Source: Burkholderiales bacterium (GTDB lineage: Bacteria; Pseudomonadota; Gammaproteobacteria; Burkholderiales; Burkholderiaceae_C). Taken from it: a stretch of DNA of 60,882 bases. The notes under the pieces were generated by a model, which was given only the letters and a program-made list of their open reading frames with translations, ran no database searches and was not told the origin of the DNA. The position numbers were made by a program, and so were the translations under genes. The stretch is from the NCBI GenBank assembly GCA_028868875.1, contig JAGWTS010000001.1:1-60882 (forward strand), read 5' to 3'. Positions 51,159 through 55,623 of this stretch are shown in pieces. The first letter of the stretch is position 1, and each line of letters starts with the position of its first letter.

Positions 51159-51934
51159 GCGGGCATCAGGCGCGCAAGCGTTTCGGCCAGCATTTCCTGA
51201 GCGACGAATCGGTGCTCGCGGCGATCATCGCCGCGATCGACCCGCGTCCGGGCGACGCCCTGGTCGAGATCGGCCCCGGCCTGGGTGCGCTTACGCATCC
51301 GCTGCTCGAATGCGTCGACCGGCTCACCGTGATCGAGCTCGACCGCGACCTCGCGGCGCGCCTGAGGCGCAACCCGCGCCTGGACGTGATCGAGGCCGAC
51401 GTGCTGACGGTCGATTTCGAGGCCCTGGCCACGGCGGCCGGGCGGCCGCTGCGCGTCGTCGGCAACCTGCCCTACAACATCTCGACGCCGATCCTGTTCC
51501 ACCTGCTCGGCGCGGCCGGGCGCATTGCCGACCAGCATTTCATGCTGCAGAAGGAAGTCGTCGAACGCATGGCTGCCGGGCCCGGCAGCAAGAACTACGG
51601 CCGCCTCTCGGTGATGCTGCAGTGGCGCTACGACATCGAGAGCGTGCTCGACGTGCCGCCCGAAGCCTTCGACCCCCCGCCGCGCGTCGATTCGGCCGTG
51701 GTGCGCATGCAGCCGCTCCCGGCGCCGCCCGAAGTCGATGCCGCGCTGCTCTCGGAACTGGTGCTGGTGGCCTTCTCGCAGCGCCGCAAGCTGCTGCGCC
51801 ACACCCTGGGCCGCTGGCTCGCCGAGCGCGCCCTCGCCCCCGGATTCGACCTTCAGCGCCGCGCCGAAGAGGTGCCGGTCGCGGAGTACCTGGCGCTGGC
51901 CGCGCAGGCGACCGAAAAAGCCGCTCGCGCCTGA
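51155..51934 (+). CDS. rsmA: 16S rRNA m6(2)A dimethyltransferase
   Basis: [44 protein letters not shown]. Confidence 0.96.
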
Positions 51935-52100
51935 GCGACGCTCCTCAAGCGAACGCCGCGGATCCGGCTTTGCCGGTCCGCTGGCGTTGCCCCCCCGGGT
52001 GGGCTGCGGCCGGACACAGGGGCGCGGCAGCGGCCCTGTGCCTGCCGCAGGCTTGGCCGCCTGCAAGCGGCCAAGCGCGCCGAAGGCGCTTCGGGGGGGA
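51935..52100. repeat. Structured intergenic repeat, family A copy 2
   Basis: gcggccggac...gcttggccgc-ctgcaa-gcggccaagc...gcgccgaaggcgct.cggggggga is homologous to 76-185, with compensatory stem changes. Confidence 0.7.
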
Positions 52101-52105
52101 TCCTG

Positions 52106-52303
52106 TCATGCGGCGTTGAGCCAGGCGGCCGTATCGAATGCGCTGCACATCATCGGCATGTTCATGCCGAAATTGGGGTTCACGCCGTTCTTCGGCACGA
52201 CCTTGGCGGCCGGCTTCGCCGCACCACCGTTCTGGGCCACTTCCGTAGCCCGCTCCCATGACCCGTTTTCCTGGGAGCGGGCTACTGAAAAGAATAGAAA
52301 CAC
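52106..52303 (-). CDS. Small ORF in the -1 frame overlapping the barstar 3' end, ending AAWLNAA (possible frameshift extension)
   Basis: Open 65 codons, mostly G/C third positions downstream of the hairpin; no SD before GTG 52303. Confidence 0.55.
   Translation of the reverse strand: MFLFFSVARSQENGSWERATEVAQNGGAAKPAAKVVPKNGVNPNFGMNMPMMCSAFDTAAWLNAA
52234..52285 (-). other. Predicted mRNA hairpin/H-type pseudoknot at the barstar stop codon
   Basis: 14-bp stem GUAGCCCGCUCCCA/UGGGAGCGGGCUAC; loop GGGUCA complementary to downstream UGGCCC; no U-tail on either strand. Confidence 0.6.
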
Positions 52304-52677
52304 CTGAACGGTATTCGTCGCTCCGCCCAGAAGTCGGCGGCGTCGCGGAAAACGTCCAGCAATTGCTCGCGCGCCTCGCGGTCGAAACGCGGGTTGTCGG
52401 GCAGTTGTTCGAGCACGACCACGAAGCCCGGCTGCGGGCCGGCCTTGTGGACGAGATCGGTCATGCAGTCGTAGAGCGCATCCAGGTTCTTGCCGAAATG
52501 CGGCGGGAACAGGAACGCCGCGGCGATCGCCTCGAGCACGTCCTGCTTGGACTGCGCCTGCGTCAGGCTGGCGTACAGGAAGTGCTGCCCGGCGCTCGCG
52601 GCGGCCTCCATCAAATCGTCGACGCGGTACGCTCGTATCGCCTGGACGATGTTCGGTCGGACGGTCTGCAACTCCAT
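52282..52677 (-). CDS. Barstar family RNase inhibitor
   Basis: FPPHFGKNLDALYDCMTD; AAGGAGG SD upstream of ATG 52677; follows the RNase gene. Confidence 0.92.
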   Translation of the reverse strand: MELQTVRPNIVQAIRAYRVDDLMEAAASAGQHFLYASLTQAQSKQDVLEAIAAAFLFPPHFGKNLDALYDCMTDLVHKAGPQPGFVVVLEQLPDNPRFDREAREQLLDVFRDAADFWAERRIPFRCFYSFQ

Positions 52678-52739
52678 GGTCGCCTGCCTCCTTGTTCGAT
52701 CAACGATGAAATGGGTGTCGCCGCTGCCAGTGCCTGCAT

Positions 52740-53153
52740 TCATGGAACGATCCGGCTGAAGCTCGAATAATGGTCGGCGGTGTAATAACAAATGTCGGGC
52801 TGGGTCGGTGGCACGCCCCCGCAGACGATGCGCCGCGCTCCGCGGTTCGGGGCGCCCGGAGTCCGCACCGTGTACTCGTGGTAGAAACCGCGAGACCGGC
52901 GCGGCAGCAGGCGCTCGCGATTGCCGAACACGACGCCGTCCTGTTGGTAGCGGAACGGCCCGCCGTTCAAGATGCGCTGGTAGGTCTGCTGCGCTGCGGG
53001 TGGGAGTTCGGAAAGAGCCACCGGATCCGTTGCGCCGCGGGCCTGAACCCCTGTTCCGGCTACCAAGCCCGAGGCCAGCGCGAGCGCCAGCCCCGACTTG
53101 TGAACCGCCTGCCGGAGCTTGCTGCCCTCCGCGGCCAGACCGAACCAGAACAC
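52740..53153 (-). CDS. Secreted guanyl-specific ribonuclease (barnase/RNase Sa family)
   Basis: Signal-like N-terminus, GGPFRY..DGVVFGNRERLLP, YHEYTV, RGARRIV, YYTADHY. Start uncertain. Confidence 0.92.
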   Translation of the reverse strand: MFWFGLAAEGSKLRQAVHKSGLALALASGLVAGTGVQARGATDPVALSELPPAAQQTYQRILNGGPFRYQQDGVVFGNRERLLPRRSRGFYHEYTVRTPGAPNRGARRIVCGGVPPTQPDICYYTADHYSSFSRIVP

Positions 53154-53298
53154 GGGTTAACCCTGAAAAATCAAACCCGAATGGTACCGGAACCCCCCCG
53201 AAAACTCAAGCCGCTGCCTAAATTTCAGGCAGTTCGACTCGGAAATCAGTGGGTGCTCACATTGTCTTTGGGAAGATCAGGGCGTTTTCGCGCGCGCT

Positions 53299-55623
<2,325 letters not shown>

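Follow-up and report, generated by a model that had tools for sequence, protein, structure and literature searches.

A probable programmed −1 ribosomal frameshift at the 3′ end of a single-copy Burkholderiaceae_C barstar gene, predicted to append a disordered tail with a candidate ClpXP degron

Introduction

Does the barstar gene of Burkholderiaceae_C end at its stop codon, or do some ribosomes leave the frame just before it and continue? The question is raised by a 60,882-nucleotide stretch of DNA, called the window below, which comprises positions 1-60,882 of contig JAGWTS010000001.1 from a Burkholderiales bacterium of this family (GCA_028868875.1). On its minus strand a barstar ORF closes with the codons TGT TTC TAT TCT TTT CAG TAG at the base of a strong stem, and the −1 frame is open across the stop. 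An initial annotation proposed that a −1 frameshift at this point yields a second barstar of about 190 residues. Comparison with relatives supports that proposal through the slip site, the stem, the register of the junction and the existence of fused orthologs, and it places the frameshift in competition with several other explanations that we weigh below.

Results

An even draw of 301 genomes from the family gave a barstar match in 291 (tallies here include the window's own genome and G145); close relatives are Rubrivivax, Rhizobacter, Piscinibacter, Ideonella and Roseateles. Around the barstar stop, 226 of the 301 carry the exact 19-nt signal in a single copy; the reversed control has no occurrence, and this number of genomes rules out an assembly error. 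We examined 230 loci, chosen and not random, of which 223 were distinct after seven duplicates were dropped. In 174 of these the tail lies out of frame as in the window (split loci; 169 complete and 5 cut by contig ends), and in 44 it is fused to barstar in frame; two short-only loci (L151, L165) and three distant ones (33-40% identity) were kept out of the split and fused counts. The junction of the fused proteins has the register expected from a −1 shift in 41 of 44 cases, and in 17 of the 44 it is exactly YSFSVAR, the predicted −1 junction, in agreement with the junction peptide FYSFSVAR that had been anticipated. A second route to fusion is seen in L174 and L203, where the junction F/C-Q-Y-P appears as if UAG had become UAC and the frame had been repaired further downstream. 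We considered whether the fused genes might themselves be frameshift artefacts and rejected this, since their codons are recoded.

Gene order on the minus strand of the window is maeB (55623-53299), a PF00545 ribonuclease (53153-52740) and the PF01337 barstar (52677-52282), with rsmA convergent, and the barstar locus is single-copy and chromosomal in conserved synteny with maeB and rsmA. The ribonuclease is a 137-residue member of the Barnase/T1 family (52740..53153, minus strand; E=3.9e-22), and a crude hydropathy scan gives it a signal-like hydrophobic segment at the N-terminus in 143 of the 145 split loci scored and in all 29 fused ones. Among complete split loci 165 of 169 have it immediately upstream of barstar, as do 34 of the 44 fused loci. 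The 0-frame barstar ORF (52282..52677, minus strand; 131 aa; E=1.2e-29) has the barstar fold, and the NxDAxxD motif of its RNase-binding helix is retained in all 165 split loci that have the RNase. By families, motif and fold the locus is a Barnase-barstar pair, with inhibition itself predicted. Between the tail stop and rsmA lies a palindromic intergenic repeat of about 155 nt (window 51945-52100), REP- or MITE-like and represented in the source genome by about 21 copies of full length and 79 partial ones; relatives carry different inserts at this position. A terminator-like hairpin with a U run overlaps the rsmA stop (window 51920-51939, minus strand) and is a candidate end for the RNase-barstar transcript. 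RNA-library contigs span the site into the tail (52077-53138 and 52167-52327); the sequencing runs contain only 4-10% of the source words, so the reads come from relatives, and strand, level and continuity as a single transcript are not resolvable in them.

The predicted slip site, U_UCU_UUU (52288..52294, minus strand), is kept as a heptamer in 173 of 174 split loci. The codons TCT TTT occur in 174/174 split against 1/44 fused loci, in genes that otherwise use TCT for 30 of 688 Ser and TTT for 273 of 1421 Phe codons; the sole fused locus with TCT TTT (L162) reads TCT TTT TCG, with a natural extra T. The heptamer does not have the canonical X_XXZ_ZZN form, as the initial annotation had cautioned, but that caveat now carries less weight: the tetramer U_UU.U within it, present in 173-174 of the 174 split loci, is known to be shift-prone in E. 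coli together with a pseudoknot, ranks there with U_UU.C after A_AA.G (PMC4066793, in the part available), and tRNA-Ser(GGA) could re-pair from UCU to UUC with one G-U pair. This tRNA is missing from the source assembly and present in a genome of the same genus. Six tetramers combined with the IS3 pseudoknot gave 0.26-5.6% frameshifting in E. coli (PMC4066793, same part), so the long barstar may be scarce. The 0-frame UAG (52282..52284, minus strand), two codons past the slip site and at the base of stem 1, is TAG in 173 and TGA in 1 of the 174 split loci.

Ten nucleotides before the UUU codon lies an SD-like AGGUG (52301..52305, minus strand), a candidate 5′ stimulator found in 86 of 111 Rubrivivax-type split loci, 10 of 61 split loci of the second type and none of the 44 fused loci; AGGKG placed 6-17 nt upstream is a proven −1 stimulator (PMC4066793, in the part available). 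This element overlaps the −1 frame GTG at 52303 and had been overlooked: the statement that no SD precedes that GTG holds, but the AGGUG across it was missed. Further upstream (52306-52320, minus strand), rare codons accumulate in split loci: codon −9 is the Ile codon ATA in 94 of 172 of them and in none of the 44 fused loci, and codon −11 is the Arg codon CGA in 64 of 172; they might slow or space ribosomes. These A-rich codons had no clear effect as an unstructured zone (unpaired probability 0.37-0.38 in split and 0.34 in fused loci), and a sigma-70 promoter was rejected as the source of the TATTCT constraint, with no promoter-like site in 51900-53400.

Downstream of the slip site the window contains a perfect 14-bp stem (52285-52272 / 52258-52245) with a 13-nt loop, whose folding z-score is −4.95 and which none of 200 shuffles matched in stability. 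The 14-bp stem reported earlier is thus present in the window, but conservation is confined to an 11-bp core (52282-52272 / 52258-52248); of the three pairs outside it, two are kept in 58/172 and 112/172 split loci. The 5′ arm of the core (52272..52282, minus strand) begins 5 nt after UUU, the loop (52259..52271) is 13 nt long in 169 of 172 split loci, and the 3′ arm (52248..52258) has 99.2% of cells paired, with two-sided changes at 4 of the 11 pairs. Ten core pairs are 99.0% paired across the 172 split loci, against 36-48% in slid controls, and no shuffle out of 500 attained the covariation score of stem 1 on 58 chosen rows, where the compensatory changes fall mostly between the two large clades and therefore represent few independent events. 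Over +4..+48 the folding energy is −25.0 ± 2.8 kcal/mol for split loci, against −15.1 ± 4.0 kcal/mol for fused ones. With its start at +5/+6, the stem lies within the 5-8 nt downstream at which frameshift-stimulating structures begin (PMC4066793, in the part available). The only two matches to Rfam were at chance level (E 0.5 and 0.75).

A second stem, of the pseudoknot kind, is also supported downstream of the slip site by pairing conserved among relatives. Five nucleotides beyond the 14-bp stem lies UGGCCC (52239-52234), which can pair with the 3′ part of the loop, GGGUCA (52264-52259); the two would form stem 2 of an H-type pseudoknot (3′ strand 52234..52239, minus strand). In the Rubrivivax type, the clade of the window, five pairs are each kept in 94-102 of 108 loci, and the best stem 2 averages 5.32 pairs against 4.12-4.39 in controls. 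The U here pairs with G or A alike, and the paired G and C are kept though the encoded residues vary (V/T/G/A; Q/P/H). The pseudoknot of the initial annotation is therefore upheld beyond coding needs in the window's own clade, but it is weak in the second type, where stem 2 has 3-4 bp in a different register (three pairs in 61 of 61 loci, one with a two-sided change) and is no longer than downstream controls (mean 3.85 and 3.87). The layout of slip site plus stem is not rare by itself: among 3954 long ORFs of the source genome, 47 U_UUY-plus-stem sites fall in the 3′ 330 nt. It is conservation that raises the barstar site above chance.

The −1 frame extension (52106..52288, minus strand; 169 complete split and 44 fused loci) runs for 60 codons and a stop and encodes SVARS...WLNAA, a variable linker followed by a conserved C-terminal motif (52109..52165, minus strand). 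Its host-like third positions, as first described, are confirmed, with a GC3 of 0.76 over the 66-codon ORF from the GTG and 0.86 for barstar. Synonymous cells outnumber non-synonymous ones by 372 to 99 in the second type and 310 to 209 in the Rubrivivax type, and the invariant residues of the motif have varied codon third positions; from its codons, the tail is evolving as a protein. The −1 frame thus bears the marks of coding selection, and the frameshift signal is lost in orthologs that read through in one frame. Ala-Ala closes the tail in 163 of the 169 complete split loci and in 35 of the 44 fused ones, nine fused tails lacking it; in the source genome as a whole, 5% of long ORFs (152 of 2987) end this way. 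An AlphaFold model of a natural fused protein, built on a 44-row alignment, has a barstar fold over residues 1-130 followed by a low-confidence tail (pLDDT <50 over residues 134-165, then about 53-55 at the C-terminus) whose motif is not packed on the barstar body; we accordingly describe the tail as predicted to be disordered. The features whose conservation the annotation proposed to test among relatives, namely the U-tract codons, stem covariation, the −1 ORF and the terminal Ala-Ala, are conserved.

A free Ala-Ala on a predicted disordered tail is what a ClpXP degron presents, and the source genome encodes clpX, sspB and a tmRNA with the tag ANDTSYALAA. A degron screen in E. coli gave the consensus [LFYW][LAR]LAA, with short polar residues disfavoured at position 3 of the final five and Ala-Ala alone insufficient (PMC10862746, in the part available). 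The barstar tails fit at positions 1, 2, 4 and 5 in 153 of 169 split loci ([LFYW][LAR]xAA; 30 of 44 fused) but mostly have N/S/A/T at position 3. In the second type the tail ends N-x-x-Y-W-L-A-A-A, resembling the tmRNA tag of the source genome. We consider the chances slightly in favour of the tail, ending W-L-N-A-A in the window, being a ClpXP degron. A mobile origin of the tail was rejected, there being no match in plasmid or phage collections, and a weak search of proteins of 330-2000 aa gave no match to it. One source labels the −1 ORF 'IMP dehydrogenase/GMP reductase' (P0005, P0040, P0064, P0094, P0099), without Pfam support and probably by mis-annotation.

The evolutionary order of these states can be approached through relatives outside the family. 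Among 20 loci from other families of the order none has the signal, and the six most similar (59-69% identity) terminate as FYSF[AEQ]-stop and lack both slip motif and tail; because these barstars end alike without a tail, the 0-frame length appears ancestral and the tail a family innovation. A tree of 44 chosen rows rejected a single clade of fused rows (p-AU 8e-16), with 9 changes on 41 rows; the larger FastTree, of 147 rows and without most split rows of L001-L080, needs 16 changes between split and fused states. Since the split arrangement with this slip site is shared by both large clades and by L133, the outermost row, we infer that the frameshift is ancestral within the family and was later fixed in frame repeatedly, a direction that falls short of proof: the trees have modest resolution and gappy outgroup rows, and the fused row L167 also branches deeply. 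L133 (G047) stops at TGA; its stem differs, the loop region being 10 nt, and its 42-residue tail looks unrelated yet is still AA-terminated.

Barstar is also kept where no such RNase was found. We searched 22 chosen genomes, 15 without PF00545 at the locus and 7 controls, and PF00545 was not found in 14 of them, including the 1-2-contig genomes G111, G119 and G185; the others with barstar and no PF00545 are G059, G076, G001, G023, G156, G132, G168, G182, G135, G390 and G418. The tail is intact in 12 genomes without a PF00545 match (10 fused, 2 split). In several of the 14 genomes the RNase-binding helix has drifted, with the remaining barstar and the tail kept. Retention of barstar without RNase suggests a second role or orphan immunity.

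Discussion

Our analysis indicates that a programmed −1 ribosomal frameshift at the 3′ end of barstar very likely occurs. The signal elements seen in the window are AGGUG, U_UCU_UUU, a spacer of 5-6 nt, the 11-bp stem capped by its 13-nt loop, and a −1 frame that stays open; by comparison they persist in loci with an out-of-frame tail and are missing or eroded in loci with a fused one. We envisage that ribosomes pause at the stem or pseudoknot with UUU in the A site, that tRNA-Phe re-pairs on UUU in the −1 frame and tRNA-Ser(GGA) on UUC, and that SD-16S pairing assists the shift in one lineage, giving ...FYSF-SVAR.... A fraction of ribosomes would then make the 190-residue form and the others stop at UAG after 131 residues. 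ClpXP may read the W-L-x-A-A end as a moderate degron, so that the rate of shifting would set the share of short-lived barstar, a step that we hold to be little better than an even bet. The tail would have been gained by an ancestral short barstar through frameshifting and later fixed in frame several times. The account as a whole, in which slip site, stem and −1 frame give a tailed 190-residue barstar besides the 131-residue form, is in our judgement probable.

The chief competitor holds that the −1 frame is a separate 65-residue protein translated by coupling at GUG/AUG (52303), the stem regulating initiation and the fusions being ordinary. A −1 frame GTG, ATG or TTG is present in 106 of 111 Rubrivivax-type and 43 of 61 second-type split loci (149 of 172), as a possible start 20 nt before the stop at the Arg/Cys junction, and since this junction supplies such a codon, with CTG in 20 of the remaining 23 loci, dual coding of a separate peptide could explain part of the constraint. 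The Arg codon of the start is purine-ending here and mostly CGC elsewhere in the gene, a bias that is also explained because the AGGUG stimulator uses the same bases. The A-richer rare codons upstream (ATA in 94/172 split, 0/44 fused) also count in favour of coupling; gene callers give the −1 ORF as a stand-alone hypothetical protein (836 hits), and fused homologs can mislead, clusters with both coupling and frameshifting being described (PMC3711429, in the part available). Against coupling, no SD precedes the start codon, the means there being −1.9 and −2.9 kcal/mol by comparison with −10.9 kcal/mol for the SD of the barstar start in the Rubrivivax type. Moreover, 23 of the 172 split loci have no ATG, GTG or TTG in the −1 frame within 45 nt upstream and still keep the tail and slip site; they carry CTG (20) or GGT (3), and in 22 of these loci 9-10 of the 10 stem pairs are intact. 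The invariance of TCT (174/174) is unexplained by a putative N-terminus in which changes would give only F to L/V/I and the neighbouring F/L position varies freely, and 41 of the 44 fusions preserve precisely the −1 register. We regard initiation at this codon as quite unlikely to be the whole explanation; it could also act alongside the frameshift, or replace it. It is nevertheless stronger than the alternative offered at the outset, a peptide coupled to a buried GGGAG, which loses ground because the next −1 frame GTG, 12 nt away, is present in only 58 of 105 Rubrivivax-type loci and GGGAG is missing from second-type stems.

Transcriptional slippage, or a terminator or processing hairpin, could be suspected from a U-rich tract beside a strong hairpin, but the run has only 4 U, the RNA-library contigs cross the hairpin, and among the contig rows listed none has an indel at 52288-52294. 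The hairpin has no U tail and was not called by terminator prediction, as the earlier reading of the stem had it. We consider this explanation very improbable.

If the frameshift is accepted, its purpose is a separate matter. The proposal that it makes a degradable antitoxin, tuning RNase inhibition in the manner of a toxin-antitoxin module, draws on the RNase directly upstream, the retained NxDAxxD motif, the Ala-Ala end and the presence of clpX and sspB, and it fares poorly in our comparisons. The RNase looks exported, which would leave little in the cytoplasm to release; in place of the cytoplasmic toxin of a type II module, 172 of 174 RNases have the signal-like segment by the crude scan, and the tie of antitoxin to toxin is broken in the 12 genomes that keep the tail without a PF00545 match. 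Exported RNase and tails kept without PF00545 together argue against a simple toxin-antitoxin dial, as do the 34 fused loci beside an RNase that encode the tailed form only. We think such tuning unlikely. The tail might instead be mainly a binding motif for a housekeeping partner. About 18-20 of its residues are conserved, against 5 for a ClpX degron (PMC10862746, in the part available), S-x-F, W and M are near-invariant across both clades, and the motif persists where the RNase is no longer found and, in some lineages, where the RNase-binding motif of barstar itself has been lost; in the model it is unpacked from the barstar body. Terminal Ala-Ala in 198 of 213 tails over a 5% background and the likeness of the second-type end to the tmRNA tag speak against this view, and an adaptor site upstream of a degron would equally explain the longer motif. 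We see a binding role as the main function as a possibility with the odds well against it. A combined hypothesis, in which a pseudoknot-driven frameshift writes a tmRNA-like tag with an adaptor site and so sets half-life, the tagged barstar having an RNase-independent second job that has preserved the tail throughout the family, strikes us as a plausible speculation with somewhat less than an even chance of being right.

The predicted signal resembles those of IS3-family elements such as IS3 and IS911, which have U_UU.U, AGGKG 6-17 nt upstream and a structure 5-8 nt downstream (PMC4066793) and make a shift product longer than the 0-frame protein (PMC4066793, PMC5009743; both in the parts available). 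Barstar differs in being a single-copy chromosomal gene in conserved synteny rather than a transposase, and in adding a predicted disordered tail, with no phage or plasmid match, rather than a catalytic domain. Like dnaX (tau/gamma) and csoS2, it is a chromosomal gene with two forms sharing their N-terminal part, and in some dnaX genes it is the long form that is predicted from the shift (PMC5009743, available part). In E. coli dnaX and csoS2, by contrast, the shift shortens the protein and the slip motif is another, and barstar is set apart from dnaX and csoS2 by orthologs that repeatedly acquire the long form in one frame. The −1 frameshift of magnesium/cobalt chelatase shares overlapping ORFs, a conserved shift site and fused homologs in related clusters (PMC3711429, PMC5009743, available parts), but uses A_AAA_AAR and joins folded domains. 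With the ssrA tag and native Ala-Ala degrons of ClpXP the barstar tail shares an aromatic-L-x-A-A end on a predicted disordered segment (PMC10862746, available part); unlike the ssrA tag, it is encoded in cis by the shifted frame and not by tmRNA, and position 3 is mostly N/S/A/T. Compared with Barnase-barstar (Imm-Barstar) systems, the Pfam families, the fold, the DxxxD motif and the order of exported RNase then inhibitor are the same (PMC3482391, available part), whereas the source barstar is longer by about 30 residues at its N-terminus and bears the frameshift tail, and barstars of this type are kept without RNase in several lineages.

A barstar frameshift was not found in the literature searched, most subscription papers lying outside its scope. 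Barstar is absent from the main text of PMC4066793, from the main text of PMC3711429 and two of its three supplement files (file 1, outside the scope, may list relevant clusters) and from the first 300,000 of the 449,034 characters of PMC5009743, and a frameshift-appended degron was not among the matches listed.

Few programmed frameshifts are conserved in bacterial genes outside mobile elements (PMC5009743, available part), and one in an ordinary chromosomal barstar would be a rare case. Because its signal is family-wide and single-copy and natural in-frame controls have arisen several times, it should be easy to test. If the frameshift is confirmed, a cellular gene with an IS3-like signal of tetramer, SD and pseudoknot would join the known cases, possibly with recoding that appends a degron, and hundreds of database entries (836 hits) would prove to be mis-modelled as a barstar plus a separate hypothetical protein. 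For the family itself, the persistence of tailed barstars gives a hint that this type of inhibitor may have a role independent of its RNase.
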